A model generated the notes under the pieces. That model worked only from the letters and a program-made list of their open reading frames with translations, made no database searches and had not been told where the DNA came from. The position numbers and the translations under genes are program-made. Below, piece after piece: positions 45,137 to 63,906 of a stretch of 64,000 nucleotides of DNA (its first letter is position 1; the number at the start of each line of letters is the position of its first letter). The DNA is from a virus (lineage: Duplodnaviria > Caudoviricetes), in IMG/VR virus record IMGVR_UViG_3300006125_000005, positions 15,910 through 79,909 of that record; one strand, 5' to 3'.

Positions 45137-45141
45137 TAATA

Positions 45142-45215: not shown

Positions 45216-45217
45216 CT

Positions 45218-45283: not shown

Positions 45284-45287
45284 TTAA

Positions 45288-45368
45288 GGGTTGGTGCCGG
45301 AGTGGACAAACGGAACTGGCTGTAAACCAGTCGCGAAAGCTACGGGGGTTCGAATCCCTCTCAACCCA
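45288..45368 (+). tRNA. tRNA-Tyr(GUA)
   Basis: gggttgg/tcaaccc acceptor stem; loop CT-GTA-AA; long variable arm gc-gaaa-gc; TTCGAAT. Confidence 0.95.
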
Positions 45369-45373
45369 CCCAA

Positions 45374-45447
45374 GCCTCAATACCCCAATTGGCAGAGGGA
45401 ATCGACTTAAAATCGATAAAGTGTGGGTTCGAATCCCACTTGAGGCA
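45374..45447 (+). tRNA. tRNA-Leu(UAA) with short variable arm
   Basis: gcctcaa/ttgaggc acceptor stem; loop CT-TAA-AA; TTCGAAT; 74 nt. Confidence 0.9.
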
Positions 45448-45463
45448 CTTTGAAAGGAGAAAA

Positions 45464-45658
45464 ATGACTAAAGAATATACACCAACTACAATTTGGAAGA
45501 TTGGCAATATGCACGTCTTTAAGCAAACGGATGGAAAGTTTGTAGTTAGTTATAAGAAGGGTAAAGAGTTTTACTATACAGAATTTGTATACGAAGACCA
45601 TAATGATGCAAAGCATAAGGCAAGGGAATTGTATATGGAAGGACACCTTTATGTCTAA
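45464..45658 (+). CDS. Small hypothetical protein
   Basis: ATG at 45464 with aaaggag RBS; the longer ORF-track start overlaps tRNA-Leu. Confidence 0.6.
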   Translation: MTKEYTPTTIWKIGNMHVFKQTDGKFVVSYKKGKEFYYTEFVYEDHNDAKHKARELYMEGHLYV

Positions 45659-45887
45659 TAGGGATTTAAGGTGGGCAGCAAAGACGTTGTTAGAATTTAA
45701 TAATGTTCCAGCTACTCCAAAATATATTGATGCTTTTTGTAATCCTTCTGGTAATGAGCAATGGATTAAGGCTATAATTAAAGGAGCATCCCCAGTAGTT
45801 GGAAGTATGACAAGTCCATATTATCAGCAAGCAATTGATATTCTCAAAGAAAATGGTATTCCTGTAGACATTTACAGAGTTGGTTAG
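45651..45887 (+). CDS. Small hypothetical protein
   Basis: ATG at 45651 overlapping upstream stop; gaagga RBS. Confidence 0.55.
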   Translation: MSNRDLRWAAKTLLEFNNVPATPKYIDAFCNPSGNEQWIKAIIKGASPVVGSMTSPYYQQAIDILKENGIPVDIYRVG

Positions 45888-45911
45888 TTGTACAATAAAA
45901 TATAAGTATAG

Positions 45912-45984
45912 GCCTCAGTAGCTCAACGGACAGAGCACCTCGTTTCTACCGAGTCGGTTGGGGGTTCGATTCCCTCCTGGGGCA
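45912..45984 (+). tRNA. tRNA-Arg(UCU)
   Basis: gcctcag/ctggggc acceptor stem; loop TT-TCT-AC; TTCGATT. Confidence 0.9.
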
Positions 45985-46002
45985 CCTAAGAAAGGAAATA
46001 GT

Positions 46003-46161
46003 ATGAAATTTAAAGTTGGAGATTACGTAGCAATCGAAATTGGAAAGATTATTGGCTTTACTTCTGATGGTAAAGCAGTAGTAGAGTTTTCATCATTCCC
46101 AGATGATTTAATGACCTGTGATACAAAAGACTTGTTCCCCTTTTCCCCACCAGAAGAATAG
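46003..46161 (+). CDS. Small SH3-like hypothetical protein
   Basis: MKFKVGDYV...GKIIGF...AVVEF; gaaagga RBS. Confidence 0.55.
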   Translation: MKFKVGDYVAIEIGKIIGFTSDGKAVVEFSSFPDDLMTCDTKDLFPFSPPEE

Positions 46162-46169
46162 TAGTTTTA

Positions 46170-46240
46170 GGACCTATAGTTTAATGGTAGAACGCCTGCT
46201 TTACACGCAGGGTATGGGAGTTCGATTCTCTCTAGGTCCA
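46170..46240 (+). tRNA. tRNA-Val(UAC)
   Basis: ggaccta/taggtcc acceptor stem; loop TT-TAC-AC; TTCGATT. Confidence 0.9.
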
Positions 46241-46242
46241 CT

Positions 46243-47670: not shown

Positions 47671-48282
47671 ATGAAGGTTGCTTTTACTGGTGCCCATGGA
47701 GTAGGTAAGACTACTCTATCTAAAATGTTGGAGGAAGTACTTGAAGAAACTTATCCTGAAAGTTCTGTATGTAAGCTCGGGTCTGCTACTCGTGACGTTC
47801 TCTCTTGGGGCGGTAATGATGGAGCAGGTAGAAGAATTTCTATTAACCCAGATGACCCAACATTCCAAGTAGCCTCTGCCCTTAAACGTAGGGAGTGGAT
47901 GCTACATCCTTTCAACCTTAAGATGGACTTTCTCATCAGTGAGAGGTGGGCTATTGATGAGTGGGTTTATCAAAATGCAGCCAATAGTGAATGGACTAAT
48001 CCAGCAAGAGTTGGGGCTGCTTCGTTTTTAGCTGATGAAGCCCGTTGGGAGATCAAAGAGTATTGGGATGTTATTTACTATATCCCCGTAACGGATAGGC
48101 CCCTTGAAGATGATGGAATAAGGCCCCTTGGCAAAGAGTTCCAGTATAAGGTAGATAGATTCTTTAAAAGGGAATTGAATTCCCTAAGTGAACAATATAA
48201 AATTAAGGTAGTATCCCAAACATTAGAGGAGTGCTTGGAGTTCTTTAGGGAGGAAGTAAGAAATTGGAAGATAGAGCGTTAG
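47671..48282 (+). CDS. P-loop nucleotide kinase (NadR/AAA_28 or dNMP-kinase-like)
   Basis: VAFTGAHGVGKTT, ISERWAID, DVIYYIP...EDDGIR. Confidence 0.7.
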   Translation: MKVAFTGAHGVGKTTLSKMLEEVLEETYPESSVCKLGSATRDVLSWGGNDGAGRRISINPDDPTFQVASALKRREWMLHPFNLKMDFLISERWAIDEWVYQNAANSEWTNPARVGAASFLADEARWEIKEYWDVIYYIPVTDRPLEDDGIRPLGKEFQYKVDRFFKRELNSLSEQYKIKVVSQTLEECLEFFREEVRNWKIER

Positions 48283-49237: not shown

Positions 49238-49603
49238 ATGAAGCAATTTGTAGGAGCTAAGCTCCATGGAATTAGAGTAACTCATAAGTCACTCGACTAC
49301 CATGGTTCAGTAACAATTCCAGAAAGTGTCTGTATGGAGCTTGGAATTGATGAGTATGAGTGGATTTATTGTGTAAATGCATCTAATGGACTTAGGTGGG
49401 AAACTTACGTACTTTATGGCCCAGATGGTGAAATGCACCTTAATGGTGGTGGAGCCCGTCTTGGTGAAATTGGAGATAAGTGTATCCTTTTTACAAAGGT
49501 TATGTACCATTACTTCCAGGGTGCTTGGGTTGCAGAATTCAATGAGTCTAACGAAGTAACTAAATTCTTTAAGTACACGACAGAGGAAATTGTCAGTGAG
49601 TAA
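49238..49603 (+). CDS. panD: Aspartate 1-decarboxylase (pyruvoyl enzyme; makes beta-alanine)
   Basis: AKLHGIRVT...LDYHG|SVTI autocleavage site; NGLRWETYV; LNGGGARL...GDKCI. Confidence 0.88.
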   Translation: MKQFVGAKLHGIRVTHKSLDYHGSVTIPESVCMELGIDEYEWIYCVNASNGLRWETYVLYGPDGEMHLNGGGARLGEIGDKCILFTKVMYHYFQGAWVAEFNESNEVTKFFKYTTEEIVSE

Positions 49604-50459
49604 GTTTACCTATGGTGCTGAGCTAGAGTGGTCAGATGTTGACCGTAGAACCCCTCTTCCAGAAGAATTAGCCGTTTGGGATAACGAAGACCAATCCATT
49701 GTTAACTCAGATGGAATGCCTAATGACCCTAAGATGAAGAAAAACGTCTACGGTGGAGAGATTAATACTAACCCTACTGATTCGATTGACCAGCAAATTG
49801 AGAATATCGGTAAGCTGAAAGAGCTACTTAACCCAGTTAGTCTTTATCGAGCTAATTTGCATGTACATATTGGAGTAGAAGGTCTTAAGGAAGATATCGT
49901 TTCCTTACAAAAGCTTCTTCAGTACGTAATTGATAATGAGCATTACGTTTACAATGAAATGCTCTTTAGGCCTACTCCTACCCAAGAAGAGTTTCCTGAC
50001 CCAGTAGATCTTAAGTTGGCTAAAGAGTTCCACCGTCAACAAAACTATTGGGCCAAGCGTCCTCTTACTCCTAATAGAGTCATTGAGACCCAAAAGGCAA
50101 CTACTCCCCAAGAGTTTTATGAAGGTCAGTTTGCTTGGAACTCTAAGACCAATACTAGAATTTGGCACCTTGGGTCTCCTAGAGCTGGTATCAATCTTCG
50201 TTCTATCTTTAAGAACGGTTCTATTGAGTTCCGTGTATTTCCGGGTACAGTTGACCTTGATGAGATTAAATCTTGTTTTGAGTTTGCTCATGACTTTACT
50301 TGGGCAGCTTTGAACGATCATAGCATTACTGCAAAGTATATGCATGAGACTAACAACTGGAACTTTCCAAAATGGCAACCATTCCTTCCTGAACTTGAGA
50401 AAGTTTGGCAAGCTAATACGGTTAAGATTCACCCAATGACCGGGGAGAGAATGAGTTGA
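49590..50459 (+). CDS. Amidoligase (COOH-NH2 ligase, GS/GCS fold) 1
   Basis: TYGAELE, GGEINTNP, LHVHIG, GINL, IEFRVFPGT. Confidence 0.75.
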   Translation: MSVSKFTYGAELEWSDVDRRTPLPEELAVWDNEDQSIVNSDGMPNDPKMKKNVYGGEINTNPTDSIDQQIENIGKLKELLNPVSLYRANLHVHIGVEGLKEDIVSLQKLLQYVIDNEHYVYNEMLFRPTPTQEEFPDPVDLKLAKEFHRQQNYWAKRPLTPNRVIETQKATTPQEFYEGQFAWNSKTNTRIWHLGSPRAGINLRSIFKNGSIEFRVFPGTVDLDEIKSCFEFAHDFTWAALNDHSITAKYMHETNNWNFPKWQPFLPELEKVWQANTVKIHPMTGERMS

Positions 50460-51292
50460 ATTTTACGTATGGGGCAGAGCTAGAATGGGCTGATGTAGAT
50501 GCCCGTCTCTTTATTAACCCAACTATTGGGTCTTGGAGTAAGAAGGAATGGACTATCGTTAATAGTGATGGCAAGGCTAATGACCCTGAGTTAATTAGAA
50601 ACCATTTTGGTGGAGAGATTAATACAGTACCTACTAACTCCTTAGCAGAACAGCTTTTAAACATTGAAGGTCTAATTGAGTTTCTAAGCCCCAAAGCTCT
50701 TTATAGGGGTAATATCCAATATCATATTGGCTATGAAGGTGCTAAAGAGAACATTGACCTAATGAAGAAAATCTTTAAGTATACAGAGGAAAACCAAGAC
50801 TTTGTATACTTTGATATGCTTCCTAGAGACCCAGCTGAACCTAAGGACTATCCCAACCCAGAAGACCTTAAGCTTGCAAAGAAGTTTGATAGACAAAGGA
50901 ATCTCTGGAATAAGCGTGGGGTTCCATCTGATAGAGCTGAAAAGATTCTAAAGGCTTCTACAGCTAAAGAGTTCTACGATGAGCATTACTTCTTTAATGA
51001 AAAGACTCAAAGGAGACTCTACCACCTTGGTACATTTAGAGCCGGTATTAACGTAAGAGCTCTTTACACCAATGGTACAGTTGAGTTTAGGTGCTTTCCA
51101 GGTTCTACTGATATAGATGAGATTAGACACTGTTTTGTCTTTTGTGAAGAGTTCATTAAGGCTGCTATCTATACTCCAGAAAGAACTGCAAAAGATATCT
51201 ACGAAAGTAGAGAATGGAAGTTTCCTAAGTGGCAAAAGTTTGACCCCGAATTAGAAAAGGGATTCAATGCAACTAAGCACCGCCCGGAGTAA
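50456..51292 (+). CDS. Amidoligase 2 (close paralog of amidoligase 1)
   Basis: TYGAELE, GGEINTVP, QYHIG, GINV, VEFRCFPGS. Confidence 0.75.
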   Translation: MNFTYGAELEWADVDARLFINPTIGSWSKKEWTIVNSDGKANDPELIRNHFGGEINTVPTNSLAEQLLNIEGLIEFLSPKALYRGNIQYHIGYEGAKENIDLMKKIFKYTEENQDFVYFDMLPRDPAEPKDYPNPEDLKLAKKFDRQRNLWNKRGVPSDRAEKILKASTAKEFYDEHYFFNEKTQRRLYHLGTFRAGINVRALYTNGTVEFRCFPGSTDIDEIRHCFVFCEEFIKAAIYTPERTAKDIYESREWKFPKWQKFDPELEKGFNATKHRPE

Positions 51293-51295
51293 AGT

Positions 51296-52165
51296 ATGAC
51301 TACTTATGGATTAGAGATTGAAACTGGAGATGTTAATTTACTCCAAGCTGCTAGAGTAGTATTTGAGAAGCAGAGTATTCCTTTTGAAGACTGGAAGGAT
51401 AGAGGAGTAAGTTTACGGGATAAGGTCCGTAGATATAACATCTGGAACATTTCTTCAGATAAAACTATTAGCAACCATAATGGGACTAGATGTCGTAGAG
51501 TAGTAATGCTTCCAGATGGTTCTATTGTTGGTGGAAAGCAAAGCAATAGGCCATATTGGCAGGGTGCAGAATTAGTTTCACCCGTACTAAAGTCAGAAAA
51601 TATGGATAATGACTTTGTATTGCTTGAAGAGTACCTTACTCTAATGGAAAACTATGGTGCCACCATTGATCCAGACCTTTTCCATGACCTCCATGTTCAT
51701 GTAGATTTTGGAGAGCAAAGTGAAAAAAATTGGAAGAGACTTCTAGAGTTTACTGCATGGGTAGAAGAAGCCCAATACCCTTTAATCAGTATCCATGAAG
51801 CAGCTACATCTGAGCATAGTCCAAAAGTATACAAGTACAGTCAAACATTTGTAGCTGATCTACTTAAGACTAAGGACTATGAGGAATATAGCTATGAATA
51901 CCGTAGACACCATCCTCTTGCAAATGGAGGTAGACAAAGTTTTGAACTCTACCAATATCGACGTCTAGTCTGCCCAGGTGCTGTTATGGATCCGACTAAG
52001 AACTATAATACACTTGAGTGGAGAGTCTGGCCAGGAATCAGAAATGTAAACTTGATTAAACGTATTTCTCAATTTAGTATTAATAGTACACAGGAATTAC
52101 CCAGTTTAGAGTATGTAAAAGAATGGTCTAAAGAGACCATCGAGTTAATGAGGAAAAGAAAGTGA
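51296..52165 (+). CDS. Amidoligase 3 (Amidoligase_2-like)
   Basis: TYGLEIE, D.TI, GAELVSPVL, LHVHVD, TLEWR. Confidence 0.75.
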   Translation: MTTYGLEIETGDVNLLQAARVVFEKQSIPFEDWKDRGVSLRDKVRRYNIWNISSDKTISNHNGTRCRRVVMLPDGSIVGGKQSNRPYWQGAELVSPVLKSENMDNDFVLLEEYLTLMENYGATIDPDLFHDLHVHVDFGEQSEKNWKRLLEFTAWVEEAQYPLISIHEAATSEHSPKVYKYSQTFVADLLKTKDYEEYSYEYRRHHPLANGGRQSFELYQYRRLVCPGAVMDPTKNYNTLEWRVWPGIRNVNLIKRISQFSINSTQELPSLEYVKEWSKETIELMRKRK

Positions 52166-52887
52166 CCTACCAATTGCCCGGACAGCCAGTAAAAGCTACA
52201 CATAAGTTTGAATCTTTAGAAGAAGAGCTCTTTGGACGCCCAAAGCGTGTACGTCGTGGTAAGATTGATATTAACACCATGACGGATGAAGAGCGTGTTG
52301 AGTATTGGAATAATGTTTCCGAAGCTCATATGTTTGGCCTTTACAAGACCCCAACAGTTAAGTTTGTTAGAGAAAAGGCTCAGCAAGTTACTAACCGTTT
52401 CTACAACGAGCTTGGTAAGCTTTCTGTCCATGAAGTTGGATGTGCTTACTCAATGACCCTCCGTTGGGTTCACCCAGAGGCTACCTTCCTTGGTACGGAC
52501 CCAGCTGAGAATATGATTAAGGCTTGCCGTATTATGTACGAAGACCGTCCCAATACTACTTTTGAGGTAGATAGTATTGAGTCAGGCCATGTCAAGTACC
52601 GTCATGATTTGGTTACAGCTTTCTGTATGATGGATTCACTCTCCCATGAGTACTCCATGAAGCTTATTCCCATGGCTGCAGATATGTGTGAAAGAGCATT
52701 CCTCTTTACTAGTCTTCGCCACGAAAAGAACAATTCCCTTGTTAAGCCCAATTGGAGCATGTACCGTAATTTCAACAGCCATGACCCAGAAGAGATTGTA
52801 GAGTTGGCTGATAAGAATGGTTTTGATTGTGAGCTTGATGTTAGAGACAAGCTTTCCAACTTTGCTGCCCTTTGGATTCGTAGGTAG
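52162..52887 (+). CDS. Class I SAM-dependent methyltransferase
   Basis: VHEVGCA (motif I), FLGTDPAENMI, HDLVTA. Confidence 0.75.
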   Translation: MTYQLPGQPVKATHKFESLEEELFGRPKRVRRGKIDINTMTDEERVEYWNNVSEAHMFGLYKTPTVKFVREKAQQVTNRFYNELGKLSVHEVGCAYSMTLRWVHPEATFLGTDPAENMIKACRIMYEDRPNTTFEVDSIESGHVKYRHDLVTAFCMMDSLSHEYSMKLIPMAADMCERAFLFTSLRHEKNNSLVKPNWSMYRNFNSHDPEEIVELADKNGFDCELDVRDKLSNFAALWIRR

Positions 52888-52889
52888 TC

Positions 52890-53672
52890 TTGAGGACAGT
52901 TGGCTTTGAAGTAGAGATGAGTGATATCCCTACCTCAAAAGCTGCTCAGCTTGTTTATGGGGATTTGAAGTATTGGCCAAAGCAACATTTTGGTGAAGGC
53001 GGATACTTTAAGCCTAAGGTAAAGTACAGCAGATGGAATCTTATCGGAGATACGACAATAGTCAACTCCGATGGGACCATCTGTGTACAACCTAAACATA
53101 GGAGTGAATGGAAGGGTGCAGAGTTAATTTCCCCTATACTGAGTACACCAGTAGAAGAATCTACTTGGGTGCAATTGCAAACTTACTTGGATGGATTTGT
53201 AGAGAATGGAGCTACCTTTAGTTCCAAGCTCTACAACTCTTTGCATGTACATGTTGGTATTTTAGATTTAGATTTTGAACAGTTTAAGTGTTTACCTAAT
53301 CACATTGTTGCTGTACAAGATGACCTAAATACTTTGAGAACAGATTGGACGGGGAGTAAGAAGTACTTCCCAAATCAACTACAAAGATTGCAAAATGCTG
53401 AAGACCCCAAGTCATGGTTGAAGGAATACTGTACTCCTGGCAAGATAACATATAGAGACTATGAGTATCCAGTTAGGAAGCTTGTTAATCTTGTTAACTA
53501 TTTCAACAATAAGGGCACAATAGAGTTCAGGTGCTTTAAGGCTAAACCTAATGCAGAGTATATCAAGTACTGTGTAGAGTTTTGCTTGTGGTTAGTAGAT
53601 AGCTGGGTAAATGGTACGGACTACACTATTGAGTTCAAAGATAGGGTTAAAGAAATTGATAATTGGAATTGA
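52890..53672 (+). CDS. Amidoligase 4 (paralog of amidoligase 3)
   Basis: TVGFEVE, GAELISPIL, LHVHVG, VNL, GTIEFRCF. Confidence 0.75.
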   Translation: MRTVGFEVEMSDIPTSKAAQLVYGDLKYWPKQHFGEGGYFKPKVKYSRWNLIGDTTIVNSDGTICVQPKHRSEWKGAELISPILSTPVEESTWVQLQTYLDGFVENGATFSSKLYNSLHVHVGILDLDFEQFKCLPNHIVAVQDDLNTLRTDWTGSKKYFPNQLQRLQNAEDPKSWLKEYCTPGKITYRDYEYPVRKLVNLVNYFNNKGTIEFRCFKAKPNAEYIKYCVEFCLWLVDSWVNGTDYTIEFKDRVKEIDNWN

Positions 53673-53795: not shown

Positions 53796-54656
53796 GTGGA
53801 TTTGTATTTAGGAGCTCCCAAGGCTTTACTTAGGCCTATGGGTTTGGGTTATGCTTTGGCTCATGAGATGGATAGTGAGGTTACTATCCAGAAGTATAAG
53901 GCTACAAATAAACTTATCTTAGATAATGGTGCTGATGAATTAGGTGAAGGTCTAGGTGGAGAAAAGCTAGCTTACCTTACTGGTAAGTTAGATCCTTACT
54001 TTCTAATCCTTCCGGATGTTTTGCATAAGCCTAAGAAAACTAGACTAAGGAGTTTAGAATTCTTAAGTAAAATGAAAGATGCTGGTTATAAAGGCCAGTT
54101 TATGGCTGTCATCCAGGATAAGGATAAGAAAAAAGCAGCCAATTCTATTTTAGAGTGGTCTTGTAGTGCTGGAGTAAATAGACTTGGTATTACGTATGAT
54201 ACTAAGATTGTTACTAATGACCCTAGCCCTGAATCTTGGATGAGAAGACTTGACTTCCTTGAATGGTTTATTAGTGAGTATAAGCAAGAGCTTAATAACG
54301 TAGATTTCCATTTGCTTGGAACTTTAGAGGTTAATGAGCTTTACCGTTTGTTCCATTTGGATAGGTATGCTGAAGTAAGGAAGTATGTAGCTAGTCATGA
54401 TACTACTGCTCCTTATGCTTGCCCTACTAGATTTGTAGTAGATCAAAGTGGAACTATTTCTTTTGGTAGAGAAAAGAATTGGAAATCCCTTAACTTTGGT
54501 AAGCAAAGTTTTAGTGGTGGTGAATTAGATACTATTGCTTGGAATACTGCTTGTTATTTAGCTGCCTGTAAGGTTCCTAAGCAAAAGTGGACTTGGTATA
54601 TGGATAAGGTTATGGCAGATATGATGTATGCTCAGTTTGAGAACTATTGTGTCTAA
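53796..54656 (+). CDS. TGT-like TIM barrel; candidate DNA 7-deazaguanine transglycosylase (DpdA-like)
   Basis: LILDNGADE, ILPDVL, MAVIQ, FHLLG, ASHDTT in the order of TGT/DpdA motifs; clustered with queD, queE and folE. Confidence 0.6.
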   Translation: MDLYLGAPKALLRPMGLGYALAHEMDSEVTIQKYKATNKLILDNGADELGEGLGGEKLAYLTGKLDPYFLILPDVLHKPKKTRLRSLEFLSKMKDAGYKGQFMAVIQDKDKKKAANSILEWSCSAGVNRLGITYDTKIVTNDPSPESWMRRLDFLEWFISEYKQELNNVDFHLLGTLEVNELYRLFHLDRYAEVRKYVASHDTTAPYACPTRFVVDQSGTISFGREKNWKSLNFGKQSFSGGELDTIAWNTACYLAACKVPKQKWTWYMDKVMADMMYAQFENYCV

Positions 54657-55587
54657 TACCTTACTCATTGTTGATGGCCATAATATTTGCATTAGAGCCT
54701 ATTTTGGCTTAGTTAGACAACAGCTGAGAACAAAAGATGGTGTAGGAACTTGGGGATTGTATGGGTCTATCAATACTTTAACTTCCCAAGTAAAGAAGTA
54801 TAACCCTACCCATATTGCTGTTACTATGGATTGGGGCAAAAGTAGTAAGAGAACAGCCCTCTACCCAGAGTACAAAGCTAATAGAACAAGTAATGGGCAA
54901 GATGAAAATTACCAAGAGTCCAGAGAACAAGTTAGGCTCTTTAGAGAATTTTGTAAGCTTTCTAATATCCCAGTTATTAGATTTGAAAATGTAGAAGCTG
55001 ATGATATTATGGCTAAGTTGGTTAAAACTTACCATAGTGATTTTGATAAGATTGTTATCTTAACAGCTGACCATGATATTAGACAGCTCATTGATGAAAA
55101 GGTTATAGTAGTAAAACCTTCCCTGGGCCAGTCCAGAGATATTGAGGAACAGACTTTTGACTTACAAAGCATTGTTGATAATTATGGTATTAAACCTAAT
55201 CGCTTACCTGAAATTTGGGCGTTAACTGGAGATAGAGGGGATAACGTCCCAGGAGTCCCTAGTATTGGCGAAAAGACAGCTATGAAGTTACTAACAGAGT
55301 TTGGTAGTCTTAGTAACTTGCTTATGAGTGACCATAAGAAAATTAACGAACATAAAGAAATAGCTAGGTTATCCTATAAGCTGGTGCAGCTGGATGGGTT
55401 AGATGATCTTGATATTCCCAGTTTAGATAGGTTAGAATTTAAACCTGTAAGGATTGGTAAAGTAGGGTCTGGGTCCTTTTTAGACTTTATAGAGAAGTAT
55501 GAATTAAATAGCATTAAGAGTAGATGGTTAGTAGATGAGCTATGGGATGAGGAAAGACCCATTGGAAGGAGACTATCTGATGGATAG
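54628..55587 (+). CDS. 5'-3' exonuclease / flap endonuclease (Pol I N-terminal-like)
   Basis: IVDGHN...RAYF, YPEYKANR, EADD, ADHD, GDRGDNVPGVPSIGEKTA; true start probably GTG 54649. Confidence 0.9.
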   Translation: MLSLRTIVSNTLLIVDGHNICIRAYFGLVRQQLRTKDGVGTWGLYGSINTLTSQVKKYNPTHIAVTMDWGKSSKRTALYPEYKANRTSNGQDENYQESREQVRLFREFCKLSNIPVIRFENVEADDIMAKLVKTYHSDFDKIVILTADHDIRQLIDEKVIVVKPSLGQSRDIEEQTFDLQSIVDNYGIKPNRLPEIWALTGDRGDNVPGVPSIGEKTAMKLLTEFGSLSNLLMSDHKKINEHKEIARLSYKLVQLDGLDDLDIPSLDRLEFKPVRIGKVGSGSFLDFIEKYELNSIKSRWLVDELWDEERPIGRRLSDG

Positions 55588-56668
55588 CAAGTTAGTAGAT
55601 ACAATTCTTAAGGATACTAAGGATTTTATTTCTAAGGGTAGTAAAGAATTAAAGTTTAATGATATTGCTTTAAGCTTGTATGCTTTACATTCTGAGTTGA
55701 ATCCAGTCTATAAGAAGTATAGTGTTGGTCCAGTAGATGACTGGAGACAGATTCCTCTTATGCCTATTAGTGAGTTTAAGAATAATGAAGTTAAACTTAC
55801 TATGAGTGATAGGATGCCCTTTCCTGGAGTAATGTTTGAGTCTTCTGGTACTACCCAGAGAGATAAGTCTAAGCATTTCCTTTATGATACTGAGTTCTAT
55901 AGAGCTTCTATGTACGAAGGGTTTAAGGATTGGATTGTTCCTAGTACTGATAAGAGTAATTTGCATTCCTATAGGGTTGTACTTTTGTCTAAAACTCTTC
56001 CCCATAGCTCGTTGTATTATATGATGAGTTATTTGAGTGAAATTTATGATTACCGTGGTATCAGAGAGCAATGGGAATTGTTAACTGATGTAGAGGTAGT
56101 TAATGAGCTTTTGGGTTGGTTAACTGATGAAAAGGAACACCCGGTAATCCTTTTTGGAACTAGCTTAGCTTTCTATGATCTTATGGATACTGTTAAGAAG
56201 GGCAACCTTGAGTTTGAAGGATTGACTAAGGGTTCCAAGATGATTGAAACTGGTGGGTGGAAGGGTAGAGATATCCAGATTTCCCCTATAGACTTAACTA
56301 AAGAGATCCAAGAGTTCTTTGGGTTAGATGAGTTTAATTGCCTTAGAGAGTATGCAATGTCTGAGATGTCCTCCCAGACTTGGCATAGTGGGTCAGAAGA
56401 TGAAGTAATGTATAGTTACCCTAGACACCTTGGGGTAAGGATTGTAGACCCTTTGAGCCAAAAAGATGTTGAGCCTGGTGAAAGTGGTATGATTGGGTTT
56501 ATTGACTTAGCTAATGTTTGGAGCTGTCCCTTTATCCTAACTGAAGATATGGGTCACCTTAAGACTTTTACCGGGGCTGACTGGTCCTTAGTACTTGAAG
56601 GAAGAGCAGTTAACGCCCCTGAGAAAGGTTGTAGTTTAACTTATGTCGAAGAAGCAATGGATAGTTAA
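55580..56668 (+). CDS. LuxE-like acyl-protein synthetase (adenylate-forming)
   Basis: IPLMPISEFK, FESSGTT, IETGGWKGR, EYAMSEMSSQ, DLANVWSCPFILTEDMG, LEGRA.NAPEKGCS. Confidence 0.85.
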   Translation: MDSKLVDTILKDTKDFISKGSKELKFNDIALSLYALHSELNPVYKKYSVGPVDDWRQIPLMPISEFKNNEVKLTMSDRMPFPGVMFESSGTTQRDKSKHFLYDTEFYRASMYEGFKDWIVPSTDKSNLHSYRVVLLSKTLPHSSLYYMMSYLSEIYDYRGIREQWELLTDVEVVNELLGWLTDEKEHPVILFGTSLAFYDLMDTVKKGNLEFEGLTKGSKMIETGGWKGRDIQISPIDLTKEIQEFFGLDEFNCLREYAMSEMSSQTWHSGSEDEVMYSYPRHLGVRIVDPLSQKDVEPGESGMIGFIDLANVWSCPFILTEDMGHLKTFTGADWSLVLEGRAVNAPEKGCSLTYVEEAMDS

Positions 56669-57677
56669 TCCAGGAGCAAACTTAGTAAGTGAGTGTGCTA
56701 AAGTTGGAAGGTTCTTAGAGTATGACTATAGGTTATCTATTAAGAATGCTGAAGTCCCATCTAGTTTTGAAGAAAACCTTTTACCTACTGGTAGACGTTT
56801 TGTAATTATTGGGGCCAGAAGTGTTCCCATGGCTACTGCTAAGTCTGTATTCCTATGTTTGAGATTAGCTGGAGCTGAAAGTGTAGTTGTTAAGACTGCT
56901 ACTGAGGATGAAGGACTTTTAGTTAAAAATGTCTTGGATAACTGGACTCCAGATGGTGTTAAAACTAAAATCTTTAGTGTAGGCTCAGATAAGCTAGGGG
57001 ATTATCCTGAGTGGGTGGAATCTCTAGAGAATGCTACAGATATTGTAGTATTTGGTGGGGAAGATACGGCTAAGTCTTTTGAAGAGTTAGATTCTAAAGA
57101 TAGGCATGTTTATATCCATGGCCCTAAGTTTAGCTTCAGTATAGTAGACGCCAAGACCCTAACTATGGTTGACTTGATGGATATTTGTTCTGATTTTGCT
57201 AACTTTTACGGAGAGGGTTGTTTATCTCCTAAGTTTTGTGTTATCGTTGGAGATATTGGGGCCAATTGGTATCATGAAGCTAGTATAATTATGAGGGCTG
57301 AGTATGGGGATAGGATTGAAGGGTTCAGGTCTAAGATGACCTTAGCTAAAAAATCTCAGCTTGTCCAAGAGATGACTAGTTCCAATATTATTGAAAAGTT
57401 TGTTAGACTTGAGACTTTGGAAAATGATGAAAAGCTCTTGAGTTCCCTTTATGGGGATATTAGATTTATAAATATAAAAAGTCTTAAAGAGCTTTGGCCT
57501 TTTATGGATAAGTGGAAAAATAGAATCAGCTCTGTATCCAGTAGTGATAATGAAGAAGCAATCAATTTACTGCAAAAGTTTGGTGTAGTTAGAGTTTGTA
57601 ATTTTGGAGAAATGCAGTTTCCAGAATTTGATGAGCAGTTTGATAGTGTAGACGATTTTGATATCTATATGCAATAG
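56643..57677 (+). CDS. LuxC-like acyl-CoA/acyl-protein reductase (compact)
   Basis: VVFGGEDT, HGPKFSF, GEGCLSP (catalytic Cys), GVVRVCNFGEMQFP...D; overlaps the luxE-like gene. Confidence 0.75.
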   Translation: MSKKQWIVNPGANLVSECAKVGRFLEYDYRLSIKNAEVPSSFEENLLPTGRRFVIIGARSVPMATAKSVFLCLRLAGAESVVVKTATEDEGLLVKNVLDNWTPDGVKTKIFSVGSDKLGDYPEWVESLENATDIVVFGGEDTAKSFEELDSKDRHVYIHGPKFSFSIVDAKTLTMVDLMDICSDFANFYGEGCLSPKFCVIVGDIGANWYHEASIIMRAEYGDRIEGFRSKMTLAKKSQLVQEMTSSNIIEKFVRLETLENDEKLLSSLYGDIRFINIKSLKELWPFMDKWKNRISSVSSSDNEEAINLLQKFGVVRVCNFGEMQFPEFDEQFDSVDDFDIYMQ

Positions 57678-57685
57678 GAGGAATA

Positions 57686-57817
57686 ATGAACAAGACAGCA
57701 TCTAAATGCCGTAAGTGTGACCATTTCCATACTGGAGAATGCCACTATAGGATGGAAGAGTTTAATGGGAAGGACTTTATTAAGAAGTCTTGTAATTGTA
57801 GAGAGAATAAAGCATGA
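57686..57817 (+). CDS. Small Cys/His-rich protein missing from ORF track (43 aa)
   Basis: aggagg RBS; MNKTASKCRKCDHFHTGECH...SCNCRENKA*. Confidence 0.55.
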   Translation: MNKTASKCRKCDHFHTGECHYRMEEFNGKDFIKKSCNCRENKA

Positions 57818-57912
57818 TAAAAAAACTTAAATGCTTGTTTAAAGGCCATAGTTGGAAATTTGCTGAAGAAGGCATCCTCTGTAGTAGGTGTGGAAAGTTA
57901 GATAGATGGTAG
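57814..57912 (+). CDS. Small Zn-finger-like protein missing from ORF track (32 aa)
   Basis: ATGA overlap; MIKKLKCLFKGHSW...LCSRCGKLDRW*. Confidence 0.5.
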   Translation: MIKKLKCLFKGHSWKFAEEGILCSRCGKLDRW

Positions 57913-59120
57913 ATTATTTAGCTAGGACCAATCCCTGTCCCTACGATATTACGATTGAAGGCTCTAGTAAGTCCTATCTCCTTACTAAGGAGTTTGGTCC
58001 TATGTTTGATATGGCCTGTGGTATTGCTGTAAATAACTTAGGGCATAGTTACCTTCCTATTATTAAGGCAGCTCGTAAGAGTGTTGGAAGTTACCGTCAT
58101 ATTAATGTGTATGGTGAATTTAATATCTCTGAGCAGCTAGAATATGCTGAGCTTTTAGCTGAAAGATTTTCTACTCTTACTATGGCAAATGGTATCAGTG
58201 AAGAAAATAAGGTTTGGTTTTGTACTTCTGGAACTGAGGCTAACGAGTTAGCTATGAAGCTAGCTACCCTTAGTACAGCTAGTAAACTTAAGAGAGGGTT
58301 TATTGCCCTTACTGGTGGGTTCCATGGTAGGACGTTGGGGAGTTTAAGTCTTACCCAAAAGGAACTTTACCGTGAACCCTTTAGTTGGATGGTTAAGGCT
58401 GGGTTAACTACTTGGATTGAACCTGGTGAAGAAATTCCCAAAGAGTTTAAGACACGTAGTGCTTTCTTTATGGAATTAGTCCAAGGTGAAGCTGGTGTTA
58501 TTCCGTTAGACCCTGAATGGGCTACTTATGTAAGCAACTGGTGTAGGGAGAATGAGGTTCTCCTAGTTGTTGACGAGGTCCAGACTGGATTTGGTAGAAC
58601 TGGAACCCATTTTGCTCTAGATCAGTACCAAGGGGTAAAGCCCGATATCATTACTTTGGGTAAGGCCCTTGGTGGTGGCTATCCCCTAGGGGCTGTTATT
58701 TCTAGTTCTAATAGGTTCAAATCTATTTCTGAGGAAAATCCCTTTACCCACCTGAGTACTTTTGGTGGTAACCCCATTGCTTGTGCAGCTGGTATTCAGA
58801 TGTTTAAGGGAACTGAGAAAAAGAAGCTTTTGCAAAATGTTAATGATGGTAATATCTTAGCTCATAATGTCTTTAAGGAATCTGAATCCGGAGCTCACCT
58901 TAGAGGTTTGGGATTGATGTTGGGTTTAGTCTTAGATGATGAAACTGATATTGACGAGGTAGTACAAAATATCTGGAAGAATAACGTATTTTGTGGTAGG
59001 GTATTGTATGGTAGTAATACTATTCGTCTATACCCGCCTTTGAATACCACTCCTTCGGACATATATAATAAGGTAAGAAGGGTTGAAGAGGCCGTTCTAG
59101 TAAGTAGAAAGAGGAAATAA
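57906..59120 (+). CDS. Class-III PLP-dependent aminotransferase (ArgD-like)
   Basis: SGTEANE, GFHGRT, ELVQGEAG, DEVQTGFGRTG, PDIITLGKALGGG, HLSTFGGNP. Confidence 0.92.
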   Translation: MVDYLARTNPCPYDITIEGSSKSYLLTKEFGPMFDMACGIAVNNLGHSYLPIIKAARKSVGSYRHINVYGEFNISEQLEYAELLAERFSTLTMANGISEENKVWFCTSGTEANELAMKLATLSTASKLKRGFIALTGGFHGRTLGSLSLTQKELYREPFSWMVKAGLTTWIEPGEEIPKEFKTRSAFFMELVQGEAGVIPLDPEWATYVSNWCRENEVLLVVDEVQTGFGRTGTHFALDQYQGVKPDIITLGKALGGGYPLGAVISSSNRFKSISEENPFTHLSTFGGNPIACAAGIQMFKGTEKKKLLQNVNDGNILAHNVFKESESGAHLRGLGLMLGLVLDDETDIDEVVQNIWKNNVFCGRVLYGSNTIRLYPPLNTTPSDIYNKVRRVEEAVLVSRKRK

Positions 59121-59587
59121 TGGCAATTTGTACTATCTCGAAAGAGATTGAGTTTGATGCTGGCCATAGAGTCAGTACTCATGGTTCCAAGTGTAAGAAT
59201 CCCCATGGGCACCGTTATAAGGTCCGGGTTACTTGTAAGGGGACTATTATTGATAACCCAGAGAGAGTTGATCATGGTATGTTGATTGACTTTGGTAGTC
59301 TTAAGACTATTATGAATGAAAAGATTCATGATGTTTTGGACCATGGATTTATTGTCTGGGAAGAAGATTTTGCGATGAGGGAATCTTTGCTTGTAGGTTT
59401 TAGAGATTATGGGCTTAATTGGAACGTAATCTTTTTTGAGACTATGCCTACTGCTGAAAATATTGCTGTATGGTGTTGGAATCAGATTAAGGATGATATT
59501 GCTAATTCCTTTGGTAAGGATTTGGTAATTGATGAAGTGGCTGTTTGGGAGACGCCTACTTCTGTAGCTTATTATCGAGGAGAGTAA
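59120..59587 (+). CDS. queD: 6-carboxy-5,6,7,8-tetrahydropterin synthase
   Basis: FDAGH...KCKNPHGHRY, GMLIDFG.LK, LDH, PTAENIA, VWETPTS. Confidence 0.92.
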   Translation: MAICTISKEIEFDAGHRVSTHGSKCKNPHGHRYKVRVTCKGTIIDNPERVDHGMLIDFGSLKTIMNEKIHDVLDHGFIVWEEDFAMRESLLVGFRDYGLNWNVIFFETMPTAENIAVWCWNQIKDDIANSFGKDLVIDEVAVWETPTSVAYYRGE

Positions 59588-60345
59588 TGGCAGACCATTT
59601 TAAGTTAGTTGAGCATTATGTTAGTACTCAGGGTGAAGGACCTAATACTGGTAAGCTTACCCAGTTTGTAAGGTTTGCTGGATGTGATATGCGCTGTGGT
59701 GGTTGGCCTTGTGATACTCCTTTTGCGAGTGACCCTAAGCAATGGGCTAAGATCTACTATAAGAGAACGGTAGATGAGCTTTACGATAATATCCTTGAGA
59801 AGTATGAGGAAACCGGAGCTAAGAATATCTGCTTTACTGGTGGAGAACCGTTTATGCAGAATAATGATCTCTTGGATGAACTCTTTGAGAAGTTAGATCC
59901 TAACTTGGAGTGGATTGAGCAAGAGAATGGTAATTTTACTATTGTTAACTTGCCTGATTTGAGATTTGAACTTGAAGCTTTCAGTAATGGTAGTTTTGAG
60001 TATTCTGACGTAGCTCTTGATAAGATTTACTTTATGATGGACTGGAAGTTGGATGGTTCCGGTGAAGGTAGTACTTCCTTAGAGAATAGACGTAAAAATG
60101 CTACGAGTATTTATGGTGGCATTAAGTTTGTTTGTAAGGATGAAGAAGACTTTAAGCAAGCTATCCAGGTATGGCATAGTCTTAAAGATAAGGTAAGCTC
60201 AGATTGTAGATTCTGGGTTGGTAGTGCTTGGGATGTATTTCCGACGAGTAGAGTAGTAGAATTGATTATGGAGCATAAGCTCCCTTGGAGTTTGAATATT
60301 CAGGTCCATAACTATATTTTTGGGGCCAACGTTCGAGGTACTTGA
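59587..60345 (+). CDS. queE: 7-carboxy-7-deazaguanine synthase (radical SAM)
   Basis: STQGEG, FVRFAGCDMRCGGWPCDT, FTGGEP, IKFV, QVH. Confidence 0.9.
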   Translation: MADHFKLVEHYVSTQGEGPNTGKLTQFVRFAGCDMRCGGWPCDTPFASDPKQWAKIYYKRTVDELYDNILEKYEETGAKNICFTGGEPFMQNNDLLDELFEKLDPNLEWIEQENGNFTIVNLPDLRFELEAFSNGSFEYSDVALDKIYFMMDWKLDGSGEGSTSLENRRKNATSIYGGIKFVCKDEEDFKQAIQVWHSLKDKVSSDCRFWVGSAWDVFPTSRVVELIMEHKLPWSLNIQVHNYIFGANVRGT

Positions 60346-60395
60346 TAATGTAGTACTATTGTACAGTTACATAAGTATAAGAACAAAGGAGTAGT

Positions 60396-61055
60396 ATGAC
60401 TTATACTTGTAGAATGTGTAGTAGTGAGTTGCCCAAAAGATCCAAGCCGGGTGGGTACCCAAAGTATTGTGAAGATTGTAAGTGTCTTACACGAGAGTGT
60501 GAAAATTGCAAAAAGACGATGTCAATCTGGCGCAAAGACGGGTACCCCACGGCAAGGTTTTGTGGACGAAAATGTTCTGCTATCAGTCAATATAGAGACC
60601 CACTTCAAAGAGATAGACGTAGAATGGGTCCGGGAATTACAGCCATGAAACAAGTCCAGAAAACTCAAGAATGGAAAGACAAGATGTCAATCCTATCGAG
60701 AGACAGAATGTATAGAAACATAGCTGACGGGACTCATCCATTTCGTAAACTCTATGAGACAAAAATTAGCAAGCTAGAACGTAGTTGCATCCCTGTACTC
60801 GAAGAAATGGGTTACTGGCATAGTAGTTTTGAGTATCGAGTCAATCATCCCAACGGGACAGTTAAGAGCCCAGACTTCAAAAAGCATAACGAAAATCTAG
60901 TAGTAGAAATATTTGGACGTTATTGGCACCCACAAGAAGATGAGGAGAATATTATCAATTGGTATAGAGAAGCAGGATTTGACTGTATTGTAGTCTGGGA
61001 AGAAGAAGTTAGTAACATCAAACAAATTATTTCAGCAAATGAAAGAGGTAGGTAG
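60396..61055 (+). mobile_element. Free-standing homing-type endonuclease (Zn-finger repeats plus Vsr/DUF559-like PD-(D/E)xK domain)
   Basis: CRMC..YCEDC, CENC..FCGRKC, SPDF...VVEIFGRYWH...VVWEEE; A-rich codon usage unlike neighbours; sits between queE and folE. Confidence 0.7.
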
Positions 61056-61056
61056 T

Positions 61057-61833
61057 ATGTATAGTAAGAATTGCCCACATTGTGGTCTTGATTTGACCAT
61101 TTACGGTGACAAGACTCAAGAAAGTCATATTAAGAACTGTCTCAGCATCAATGCAAACCGTAAGGATTTGCAAAAGCTTAAGGGTGACTTAAATAAGTGG
61201 TCAAAGCTGGATGATGCTTGGGAATCATACCCAGGGGATTATTGGAAGGATATCCGTTCCAATAAGAAGTTAAATACTCCATCAGCTAAAGATGCTGTAA
61301 GTGAGTTATTGAGTGCTCTAGGAGAAGATGTTACCCGAGAGGGTCTCCTTGAAACTCCACGTAGAGTTGCTGAAATGTATGCTGAGTTAACTTCTGGTTA
61401 CCAGCTTGACCCCAGGGAGATTGTTGAAAAGGCAATCTTTAAGGAGGGTTCCAGTGAACTTGTAATTGTTAGGGATATTCCTTTCTATAGCCTTTGTGAG
61501 CACCACCTTGCTCCATTCTTTGGAACTGCTACTATTGGTTACGTTCCAGTTAATGGACGGGTCGTAGGACTTTCTAAGTTGGCTCGAGTATTGGATGCTT
61601 TTGCTAAGCGTCTCCAAGTCCAAGAGCGACTTGGTGCCCAAATTGCTGATACCCTCTATACTAGTGGCCTTAACCCTAATGGTGTTGGCGTATACATTAG
61701 TGCAGAGCACCTTTGTATGGCTATGAGAGGTGTACAAAAGCCTGGAACCTCTACGGTTACGAATACCCTCCGGGGATGCATAAAGAATGGTGACCACAAG
61801 GAAGAGTGGATGAGGATGGTAGCTGGTAGATGA
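61057..61833 (+). CDS. folE: GTP cyclohydrolase I with N-terminal Zn-finger extension
   Basis: REGLLETPRRVA, SLCEHHLAPFFG, GLSKLAR, RLQVQERL, AEHLCMAMRGV. Confidence 0.95.
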   Translation: MYSKNCPHCGLDLTIYGDKTQESHIKNCLSINANRKDLQKLKGDLNKWSKLDDAWESYPGDYWKDIRSNKKLNTPSAKDAVSELLSALGEDVTREGLLETPRRVAEMYAELTSGYQLDPREIVEKAIFKEGSSELVIVRDIPFYSLCEHHLAPFFGTATIGYVPVNGRVVGLSKLARVLDAFAKRLQVQERLGAQIADTLYTSGLNPNGVGVYISAEHLCMAMRGVQKPGTSTVTNTLRGCIKNGDHKEEWMRMVAGR

Positions 61834-62336
61834 TTATTGACCCTTTTGAGGTCGTCAGTAAGGGATATATCAACAGGGTTAAGTTAGAAAATATTCAGCC
61901 CAATAGTATTGACCTTACGTTGGCCCAGGTATATGAAATCGAAGGACCCTTGGTGCTTTTTGCAAATAAGGAGAACCGTAGGAGACTTCCCCAGTATAAG
62001 TTGATTAAACCCTTCCCATATGAGGGGGTAGATATGTATCAACTTGAACCTGGCAAAAGATACCAAGCTGAGTTCAATGAGCTTTTGCAATTACCTGAGG
62101 ATATTTGTGCTCTTACTTTAGTTAGGAGTACGATGGCCAAGAGTGGTTGTACTGGTGAAAATGGACTCTTTGATAGTGGATACCGGGGAGCAACTGGTAT
62201 GATGGTATCGGTGCAGACTGAAAGCTTTATCGAAATTGGGGCTTGTATTGCCCAGATGATTTTCTTTAAGGCTGAGACGAGTAAAACTTATAATGGATTT
62301 TATCAAGGGGCATTGACCCCATTGGAGTGGCAATGA
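61830..62336 (+). CDS. Trimeric dCTP deaminase / dUTPase family protein
   Basis: IQPNSIDLTL, RSTMAKSG, FDSGYRG, IAQMIF, YNGFYQ. Confidence 0.8.
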   Translation: MIIDPFEVVSKGYINRVKLENIQPNSIDLTLAQVYEIEGPLVLFANKENRRRLPQYKLIKPFPYEGVDMYQLEPGKRYQAEFNELLQLPEDICALTLVRSTMAKSGCTGENGLFDSGYRGATGMMVSVQTESFIEIGACIAQMIFFKAETSKTYNGFYQGALTPLEWQ

Positions 62337-62695: not shown

Positions 62696-63143
62696 AAAGA
62701 AGTTAATTGTTCCTATTAAGGACTTTGACTCTGATAGTTATGATGAAGTAATTGAAGTCCCTGTAAGTAAGGTTGAGTCTAGTCAGTTAAGTATTGATGA
62801 AAACTCTGACCCCAAAGACCTACTTATGTACTTTAGTAAGAGGTTTAAAGAGGTGCATGGATATGACTACGTTATATCCTGGGTAAAGGAAATCGGTATC
62901 CTAAAGTCCTTTAAGGAACGTTATGGGCAGGATGCTGGTCCTATGGTTGAACTATTGTTTGATAAGTATGCAGGTTCGATTAATGGGTCTGTAATGACGA
63001 TTACTGCTTTTAGTAAAGGTAGTAAATGGATTCAAGATAGACTCTATATTGAGTTACAGCAGAGTAAAGTTAAGGAAGAGCCAGCTAGTGTGGAAGGGTT
63101 GATGAGTTCGAATGACTTCTTTAGAAAGATTTCCCTGGGTTAA
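62676..63143 (+). CDS. Hypothetical replication-associated protein
   Basis: 155 aa; overlaps the dnaC-like gene. Confidence 0.5.
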   Translation: MMTEPVKKKLIVPIKDFDSDSYDEVIEVPVSKVESSQLSIDENSDPKDLLMYFSKRFKEVHGYDYVISWVKEIGILKSFKERYGQDAGPMVELLFDKYAGSINGSVMTITAFSKGSKWIQDRLYIELQQSKVKEEPASVEGLMSSNDFFRKISLG

Positions 63144-63906
63144 GGATTATAAGGACCTAACCCATAGCTTTTTGGAAGATGATGTAGTTGAGTACTTGGA
63201 GAATAAAACTCCCCAGTTCGAAAAGGTAAGTAAGCAAGGTTGCCCTACTTGTGACGACCGTTCTTGTGGAGATTGCAAGGTCCAGCTTCAGCTGTATAAG
63301 CATTACTTAAATGCTGGTATTGGGTTTAGTTACCAGAGACTTGACTGGGACGATTTCCATGGGGATAAGCAGGCTTTAGAACTTGCTCAGACCTATTTGA
63401 CTAAGCATAGGGAAATGGTCAAGGGTGGGTTAGGGTTAATGTTATATGGTTCCTGGGGAACTGGTAAGACCCTTATTACTGCTTTGATTGCTAAGGAATT
63501 GGTGAAACTTGGTTATACGGTATATTTTGCTACTTTTACTCAGATGGTGGACGAGTTTACCAGAGGGTGGGGAAGTAATGAAGAAAAAGCTAGATTTGAG
63601 TCTAGAGTAGTTAAGAGTGATATCTTCTTCCTTGATGATGTAGGTAAGGAATTTAGAACTAAGAATAATTTGAGTGAAGCTACTTTTGACCATGTGTTGA
63701 GGCAAAGGGCTTTAGATAACCGTCCTACGTTTATTACGACGAATATGACGGTCAGTGAGTTAAGTGTTGGTTATGGGAGTGCAATTTTTTCGTTATTGAA
63801 AGAAAGAATGATTACCCATAATATGGAAGGTATAGATTATAGGGAATTTGCTCGTGATAGAGCCTTTGAAGAAATTGCCTCCGGAAGAGTAAGGAAGATT
63901 TACTAA
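63112..63906 (+). CDS. DnaC/IstB-like AAA+ helicase loader
   Basis: CPTC..C.DC, GSWGTGKT, FFLDDVGKE, R...RPTFITTN. Confidence 0.85.
   Translation: MTSLERFPWVKDYKDLTHSFLEDDVVEYLENKTPQFEKVSKQGCPTCDDRSCGDCKVQLQLYKHYLNAGIGFSYQRLDWDDFHGDKQALELAQTYLTKHREMVKGGLGLMLYGSWGTGKTLITALIAKELVKLGYTVYFATFTQMVDEFTRGWGSNEEKARFESRVVKSDIFFLDDVGKEFRTKNNLSEATFDHVLRQRALDNRPTFITTNMTVSELSVGYGSAIFSLLKERMITHNMEGIDYREFARDRAFEEIASGRVRKIY

Follow-up and report, generated by a model that had tools for sequence, protein, structure and literature searches.

How might a phage that encodes FolE, QueD and QueE, but for which neither QueC nor QueF was found, turn the product of these three enzymes into a finished modified base? 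The question is raised by a viral record of the Caudoviricetes (IMG/VR record IMGVR_UViG_3300006125_000005; 79,909 b, estimated to be 51% complete), of which bases 15910-79909, a stretch of 64,000 nucleotides, form the window analyzed here. Close to the end of the record, at positions 53796-62336 of the window, ORF calling delineated ten consecutive open reading frames (ORFs), all on the + strand and with mostly overlapping ends. In order, they code for a DpdA-like protein, a 5'-3' exonuclease, a LuxE-like and a LuxC-like protein, a class-III (omega) aminotransferase, QueD, a QueE-like protein, a Cys-rich protein, FolE and a DCD-like protein. Pfam named eight of the ten, the exceptions being the first (53796-54656) and the eighth (60396-61055). 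The first-pass annotation of this DNA had described a largely overlapping run of genes on one strand, in which the stop of the aminotransferase gene overlaps the start of queD; the coordinates of the ORFs at 53796-61833 bear out both statements, the overlap being of 1 nt (both at 59120).

That annotation had further proposed that the LuxE-like protein, the LuxC-like protein and the aminotransferase (the trio, in what follows) replace QueC and QueF. FolE, QueD and QueE would convert GTP to 7-carboxy-7-deazaguanine (CDG), which is the established chemistry of these families. The LuxE-like enzyme would adenylate the carboxylate of CDG and then keep the acyl group bound, as a thioester, to its C-terminal Cys; the LuxC-like enzyme would accept the acyl group on its active-site Cys and reduce it with NAD(P)H to 7-formyl-7-deazaguanine; the aminotransferase would turn this aldehyde into the primary amine preQ1; and the DpdA-like protein, with a predicted TGT fold, would exchange guanine in the phage DNA for the preQ1 base. 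In most lineages, the amine may finally be decorated by amidoligases (with beta-alanine made by PanD), by a methyltransferase or by a GNAT acetyltransferase. The replacement is supported by the co-occurrence of the genes, their recurrence in a distant lineage, their joint loss and the catalytic residues that the proteins have kept. Genome comparisons bore out each of the predictions that they were able to address. On the strength of the co-occurrence and the joint loss, we consider it very probable that the trio belongs to a deazaguanine module in some way, and we lean, by a little, towards the full mechanism, from CDG through the aldehyde and preQ1 to DNA. We infer CDG as the substrate of LuxE, preQ1 as the product, the order of the steps and DNA as the target; the minimal conserved set of genes appears to make a complete path in one way only, that is, CDG, aldehyde, preQ1, insertion.

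With a record that is 51% complete and a cluster situated close to the end of it, the absence of queC from the window would by itself be weak evidence. The absence extends, however, to the window's record as a whole and to its relatives, as QueC was found in 0/9 records (G000-G005 and G011-G013) and QueF in 0/8 (G000-G004 and G011-G013), in searches in which control genomes gave matches. G000 is the window's own record and G001-G005 are related ones, with an estimated completeness of 84, 83, 75, 61 and 48% (G001 measures 132.9 kb); all the records searched are incomplete or of uncertain completeness. No luciferase (luxAB) was found in the window's record either, so that the initial statement that the window has no queC, queF or luxAB holds for the entire record, at its 51% completeness. 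A preQ1 riboswitch was not detected in the window, at the gathering threshold or at E <= 1.

Are the genes for the synthesis of CDG those that their names imply? QueD (CPH4 synthase; 59120-59587, +; Pfam PTPS, 4.3e-34) carries the CxxxHGH sequence given as the QueD signature in PMC10516641. A single PTPS gene is present per record in 5/5 records, the window copy being the QueD with CxxxHGH. This bears on another way of dispensing with QueC, known from phages that, like this one, have DpdA, FolE, QueD and QueE without QueC, and in which DpdL is proposed to decarboxylate CDG, leading to dDG (Cui 2023). We reject the DpdL route here, as there is no DpdL paralogue beside the single PTPS gene of the five records and the window copy keeps the QueD Cys; LuxE, LuxC and the aminotransferase are found instead. 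The QueE-like protein, a predicted radical-SAM CDG synthase (59545-60345, +), was recognized by Pfam (Fer4_12/Radical_SAM) and by a QueE-like PHROG (1.5e-26); the best of the NCBIfam QueE models matched at 2e-27, and all were under their cut-offs. Its cluster cysteines are spaced C-x3-C-x4-C, the usual radical-SAM motif being CxxxCxxC. FolE (GTP cyclohydrolase I; 61039-61833, +; Pfam GTP_cyclohydroI, 7.6e-69) is 264 aa long, with the domain at residues 84-260. The FolE of the distant lineage described below (L110:8328-9122) also has 264 aa, with the domain at 83-259, and since a similar N-terminal extension is present in both, the extension may be real and conserved.

The LuxE-like acyl-protein synthetase (55535-56668, +) matched Pfam LuxE (PF04443; 8.9e-13, 48.3 bits against a cut-off of 24.9) over residues 199-370 only; the gene caller placed its start 15 codons downstream of the ORF start at 55535, giving a protein of 362 aa. 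A profile of the LuxE-like family aligned to nearly the entire LuxE chain of 7xc6 (7xc6_E; E 7.8e-28, positions 27-350 of 355). Conserved in the family and aligned to the LuxE motifs are SSGTT, TGGWKGR and GR...KGCSL, and the phage motifs correspond to K238, R355 and Cys364 of LuxE. According to PMC9157457, adenylation and thioester formation in LuxE depend on Arg355, on the GGGWK-loop Lys and on Cys364 in the C-terminal TRxxKGCxLS motif. The score with the NCBIfam equivalog NF052244 was 40.5 bits, against a cut-off of 550, and does not indicate orthology to the LuxE of luminescence.

The LuxC-like thioester reductase (56643-57677, +; 344 aa, ALDH fold) matched Pfam LuxC (PF05893; 9.9e-12, 44.9 bits against a cut-off of 21). 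When its AF2 model (pLDDT 92.0) was compared with solved structures using VIA, the best match was LuxC 7xc6_A (Z 29.5, rmsd 2.8, 326 of the 344 residues), whereas other ALDHs reached Z <= 25.4, about 4 Z units lower. In sequence alignments, the Cys in YGEGCLSPK falls on the active-site Cys of LuxC. The solved LuxC chain has 477 aa, compared with 344 in the phage protein, which is without about 70 N-terminal residues; the model covers residues 70-453 of 7xc6_A and stops there, and the C-terminal element P460-P488 has no counterpart in it. In LuxC, this element builds a hydrophobic fatty-acyl cleft of >40 A (PMC9157457). Since the phage LuxC ends at about residue 453, it would be without the cleft element, a feature of the model that may fit a substrate other than a fatty acid. 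Thus, the phage pair resembles the LuxC-LuxE fatty acid reductase (7xc6) in its near-full-length homology and in having kept the Lys/Arg pair, the KGC sequence and the reductase Cys, and probably shares its mechanism, from adenylate to enzyme thioester to aldehyde. Unlike the reductase, it is found with a shorter LuxC devoid of the cleft element, without luxAB, and in a context of nucleobase synthesis. That LuxE and LuxC are known only as fatty-acid reductases is a reason for considering that the trio is unrelated to 7-deazaguanine and aminates a fatty acid or some other metabolite, the phage using the QueC and QueF of its host or having CDG as end point, and the co-occurrence of the genes being an inherited order. 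The lack of the fatty-acyl cleft element in the phage LuxC speaks against this explanation, to which we return with the evidence from related phages.

The class-III aminotransferase (57906-59120, +) matched Pfam Aminotran_3 over its full length (5.8e-71); the nearest NCBIfam models, those of the acetylornithine, LysJ and putrescine aminotransferases, were all under cut-off. The passage from an acid to a primary amine through a thioester and an aldehyde has precedents in TabE/TabA, TamH and PigE; in tambjamine biosynthesis, in particular, a LuxC-related reductase and a class-III transaminase yield an amine, and TabE clusters with LuxC. The precedents differ in that a fatty acyl-ACP is the substrate there, while a 7-deazapurine acid and an activation of the LuxE type are predicted here. 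The intermediate that the proposed route calls for, 7-formyl-7-deazaguanine, is a known compound, reported to be released by QueF mutants.

Insertion of the base would fall to the product of the first ORF of the run (53796-54656, +; 286 aa), which the first-pass annotation had called dpdA-like. No family in Pfam, PHROG or NCBIfam matched the protein, Pfam TGT (PF01702) matched neither the protein nor anything else in the record, and a profile of its family found nothing significant among PDB sequences, with DpdA 7ui4 at E = 1; the TGT/DpdA assignment comes from the predicted fold. An AF2 model built from an alignment of 30 family members (pLDDT 92.5) was compared with the PDB using Foldseek, and the best 50 matches were all TGT, with E from 2e-7. 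In the VIA comparison, DpdA 7ui4, a DNA preQ0 insertase, came first (Z 15.4, rmsd 3.6, 224 aa), in a tie with arcTGT (Z 15.3) and bacterial TGT (Z 15.2). D43, D74, Q107 and D202, which may correspond to the catalytic residues of TGT, are invariant in 30/30 family members. The family is rare, with 57 representatives among 1.84 billion proteins. By its model, the product of 53796-54656 is a minimal TGT-fold enzyme, and the gene context suggests DNA as its target.

It could also be that the TGT-fold protein acts on tRNA, either that of the host or the tRNA-Tyr(GTA) of the phage, and that the module supplies preQ1 for a modification of the queuosine type. The bacterial TGT uses preQ1 (PMC10516641), the phage does carry a tRNA-Tyr with anticodon GTA, and the fold comparison ties DpdA with the TGTs that act on tRNA. 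At 286 aa, however, the protein aligns to the catalytic barrel alone (224-230 residues) and has no extra tRNA-binding domain; moreover, its gene lies inside a DNA replication block, and PMC10516641 has every que-cluster phage transglycosylase studied so far working on DNA. We regard a tRNA target as the least probable of the explanations considered here and DNA as the likelier one.

To what extent do these genes travel together? Loci were collected by alignment-based pattern scans (11 for LuxE in viral contigs, 33 for LuxC in viral contigs, 51 for LuxE in metagenomes and 6 for LuxE in genome contigs) and the window proteins served as tblastn queries to establish which genes they contain; the use of an alignment was required, as a scan with a single LuxE sequence gave no locus. 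A full-length LuxE was found in 64 loci, which formed 34 clusters at 90% identity; in 23 clusters the motifs are intact, and these LuxE proteins are 43-60% identical to that of the window (100% for the window's own copy). Wherever at least 4.9 kb of downstream sequence was available (14/14 clusters), the DpdA-like gene, the exonuclease, LuxC with its Cys, the aminotransferase, QueD, QueE, FolE and DCD were all present. The other nine clusters with intact motifs are shorter; their contents are consistent with the pattern and none contradicts it. No cultured relative was found, as megablast of the cluster against deposited phages returned nothing. A tblastn search of 50,697 deposited phage records gave no match for the DpdA-like, LuxE-like, LuxC-like or methyltransferase proteins, and for the aminotransferase only matches with <37% identity, in housekeeping-like records.

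A scan with the alignment of the DpdA-like family led to a second, distant lineage of three records of about 86 kb (L110, L112 and L113), the proteins of which are 20-40% identical to those of the window. Terminal repeats are present in two of these records, yet CheckV estimates the two to be 57-58% complete. The genes are found here in a different order: QueD and, further along, AAA_28, FolE, an amidoligase, the DpdA-like gene, the exonuclease, QueE, LuxE, LuxC, the aminotransferase and DCD. From QueE to DCD the genes overlap at their ends, with overlaps of 4 nt at the last three junctions. The distant LuxE keeps SSGTS, TGGYKG and KGCS, and the distant LuxC keeps its Cys; neither QueC nor QueF was found in the three records. 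Conservation of the arrangement in 14/14 informative LuxE clusters, together with its rearranged form in the distant lineage, is far beyond chance. The recurrence of the set, reordered, at this level of identity argues against the view that the trio is unrelated to 7-deazaguanine, as does the presence of the LuxC Cys in que-bearing lineages, 14/14. Cellular LuxE-like genes could be cited in favor of that view, as they lack the other cluster genes in their vicinity, save for L103, where a PanD-like match lies at a distance of 9 kb; so could the possibility that a host supplies QueC and QueF. We set the cellular loci (Bacteroidota, Balneolaceae metagenome-assembled genomes; 27-33% identical) aside as uninformative for the subfamily.

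The relation between the trio and the que genes could also be followed where the latter have been lost. In a tree based on three neighbouring marker proteins and rooted with the distant lineage, the que-bearing lineages are basal. The que-less phages of one clade form a single derived group (support 100/100), G010 pairs as sister with a phage that has que genes (100/100), and such phages also surround the L011 clade. The que-bearing base and the three separate placements amount to three independent losses. With each loss, the DpdA-like gene, the aminotransferase, QueD and QueE are gone together, LuxE is lost or decayed, and the catalytic residue of LuxC is gone in most descendants. In the que-less clade, the 22 loci have the exonuclease gene followed directly by a LuxC-like gene, and no LuxE, aminotransferase, DpdA-like or que gene; neither PTPS nor LuxE was found anywhere in four que-less records estimated to be 72-89% complete. 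The LuxC Cys is kept in seven of the 22 loci and replaced in 15, by Ser (5), Thr (3) or Arg (7). In G010, a complete genome with terminal repeats of 127 b, LuxE is degenerate, the LuxC Cys is replaced by Thr, and FolE is present alone. The L011 clade has the exonuclease, LuxE and LuxC, yet no que gene in the whole 75-kb record. We do not count L011 as a counter-example, as its LuxE is without all three motifs (SSGTT, TGGWKGR and KGCS) and the Cys of its LuxC is replaced by Ser. The first-pass annotation had raised the possibility that the trio occurs independently of the que genes: a LuxC-like gene does, alone or with a motif-less LuxE, but the intact trio was never seen to. Although LuxC-like genes without que genes in the sister clade would fit a trio unrelated to 7-deazaguanine, three losses of the que genes, each with LuxE lost or motif-less and the aminotransferase lost, would not, and on the whole we find an unrelated trio highly unlikely.

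Upstream of the run, the first-pass annotation had noted panD, amidoligases and a methyltransferase that could elaborate the base further. Their presence is confirmed by Pfam, with PanD at 49238-49603, three Amidoligase_2 genes at 49590-50459, 50456-51292 and 52890-53672, and the methyltransferase at 52162-52887, all on the + strand; a paralogue of the amidoligases lies at 51296-52165 (+), its orthologue in L007 being 36% identical to the third amidoligase. The set varies by lineage, as expected for an optional decoration: three clusters (L001, L072 and L010) are without it, PanD is found in 4/14 informative clusters only, and no Amidoligase_2 was detected anywhere in the G001 (132.9 kb) or G004 records. 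Because the trio is present in G001 and G004 without an amidoligase, its substrate would be independent of any amidoligase product. Amidoligases, methyltransferases and GNAT enzymes commonly act on amines, and thus may decorate the base, like DpdM and DpdN on dPreQ1. In the amidoligase-free lineage of L010, the gene immediately upstream of the DpdA-like one codes for a GNAT acetyltransferase (L010:7454-8113; Pfam 2e-5) and takes the slot that amidoligases or the methyltransferase have in other lineages. In two related phages, the variable slot upstream of the DpdA-like gene is filled by a pyrimidine-dimer DNA glycosylase gene in L001 (L001:6943-7362; Pfam 2.5e-25) and a UvdE UV endonuclease gene in L005 (L005:3641-4708; 3.4e-39).

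The amidoligases are also at the origin of the main rival explanation, in which CDG itself enters the DNA (dCDG) and its carboxyl serves as the handle for the amidoligases, while the trio makes the amine partner or aminates the terminal carboxylate of the attached amino acid (for example, beta-alanine or Glu). PMC10516641 reports that the DpdA2 of VH7D inserts CDG in a queC mutant, and in another phage a carboxyl borne by the DNA, that of 5-carboxymethylcytosine, is the handle for the ATP-dependent amide ligase CmoY (PMC12783734). In addition, most lineages, and the distant one as well, have amidoligase genes adjoining the DpdA-like gene, and the aminotransferase is closest to the ArgD/LysJ types, which use acylated amino-acid semialdehydes. 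The trio is, however, intact in the amidoligase-free records G001 and G004 and in the clusters L001, L072 and L010, PanD is present in no more than 4 of the 14 informative clusters, and in the distant lineage it is the CDG-making QueE gene that overlaps the start of LuxE. It seems possible, if rather unlikely, that CDG is the base inserted, and we retain the conversion of CDG to preQ1 by the trio as the preferred reading.

Several observations weigh against the conversion of CDG to preQ1 as proposed here. The curated families nearest to the aminotransferase (acetylornithine, LysJ and putrescine; under cut-off) use aliphatic omega-aldehydes, and we know of no related aminotransferase for heteroaryl aldehydes. 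The amidoligases found in most lineages leave room for a chemistry of CDG amides, the fold scores, tied for DpdA, arcTGT and bacterial TGT, do not separate a DNA from a tRNA target, and the evidence as a whole is drawn from two related phage groups only. The que-bearing genomes of the window's clade are at most 84% complete and the distant records with terminal repeats 57-58% (CheckV), and QueC and QueF of the host could conceivably serve the phage. Finally, a full-length LuxC-like gene persists in the 22 que-less loci (L024-L047; for example, L024:9992-11056), where it is still constrained: the nonsynonymous divergence (dN) is 0.18-0.35, the synonymous divergence (dS) being saturated. Relative to the exonuclease, the only form in which dN can be used given the saturation of synonymous sites, LuxC has a dN ratio of about 1.2-2.8 in que-less pairs, against 0.7-1.05 in que-bearing pairs. 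Persistence and constraint in the absence of que genes imply that the LuxC-like protein has a role independent of these genes, either non-catalytic or different.

How does the proposed route relate to what is known? The phage DpdA systems responsible for dPreQ0, dPreQ1, dG+ and dADG (Hutinet 2019; Cui 2023) employ FolE, QueD, QueE and QueC, with or without QueF. As in those systems, a TGT-fold transglycosylase here shares a cluster with FolE, QueD and QueE, and lineage-specific candidate decorators of the aminomethyl group are found, comparable to DpdM and DpdN on dPreQ1. In contrast to those systems, QueC and QueF are missing here, no TGT sequence model and no deposited phage gives a match to the transglycosylase, and the route would skip preQ0, which a 2026 review places as the common central intermediate. 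The cluster would thus be a known kind of 7-deazaguanine modification system, but with the trio in place of QueC and QueF and with a subfamily of transglycosylases that escapes sequence models. The first-pass annotation knew of no published description of such a route, and we found none: the literature searched did not connect deazaguanines with either LuxE or LuxC, nor did it describe a route to preQ1 by way of an acid reductase, the supplementary gene sets of PMC10516641, which could bear on novelty, lying outside the search. A nitrile-free, preQ0-independent route to preQ1, with LuxE and LuxC acting on CDG, a new TGT-fold subfamily and hypermodified guanines such as beta-alanyl- or acetyl-dPreQ1, is a combination for and against which we see the case as evenly balanced.

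If correct, the route would alter the accepted map, in which the described ways to aminomethyl-7-deazaguanines, in tRNA as in DNA, pass via the nitrile preQ0 made by QueC, and two of its steps would be replaced, by non-orthologous enzymes, in the bypass from carboxylate to aldehyde to amine. The route would also take the chemistry of LuxC and LuxE beyond fatty acids, giving the pair its first known substrate of another kind, and add to DpdA a subfamily invisible to sequence models; the enzymes could, moreover, give a biocatalytic route to preQ1 analogues. The cluster also suggests that the DNA of abundant uncultured phages contains guanines with amide decorations not described so far.

Other genes in or near the run differ in how closely they follow the module. 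The exonuclease (54628-55587, +; Pfam 5_3_exonuc_N, 1.1e-38) is retained in 21/22 que-less loci and in L011, and is probably a syntenic neighbour and not a member of the pathway. The DCD-like gene (61830-62336, +; dCTP-deaminase/dUTPase fold, Pfam DCD 1.8e-18) is present in 14/14 informative clusters and absent in all three loss lineages; the distant lineage has it too, with a start that overlaps the stop of the aminotransferase gene by 4 nt. A gene for an AAA_28 P-loop kinase-like protein (47671-48282, +; Pfam AAA_28, 1e-7) accompanies the que genes, also in the distant lineage, and is absent from the que-less clade and L011 (2/3 losses). The DCD-like and AAA_28 proteins co-vary with the module and may be unrecognised parts of the pathway. 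The Cys-rich ORF (60396-61055, +) had been labeled an endonuclease, a label that finds no support, as the protein has no family in Pfam, PHROG or NCBIfam and no match in the PDB. L079 is the only que-bearing relative with a match to it (tblastn), and there the protein is 95% identical, against 80% for QueE and 76% for FolE. Weak paralogues occur at three places in G005. Judging from these comparisons, the Cys-rich ORF is probably a mobile insertion that moved recently and lies outside the pathway.

Six tRNA genes are found at 45061-46241 (Lys-TTT, Pro-TGG, Tyr-GTA, Leu-TAA, Arg-TCT and Val-TAC), of which tRNA-Tyr(GTA) is of a type that bears queuosine in bacteria. Downstream of the cluster, genes for an Hfq-like phage protein (62327-62695; PF23874, 3.2e-7) and for an IstB/DnaC-like ATPase (63112-63906) are kept in all relatives, which places the cluster at the front of the replication block.

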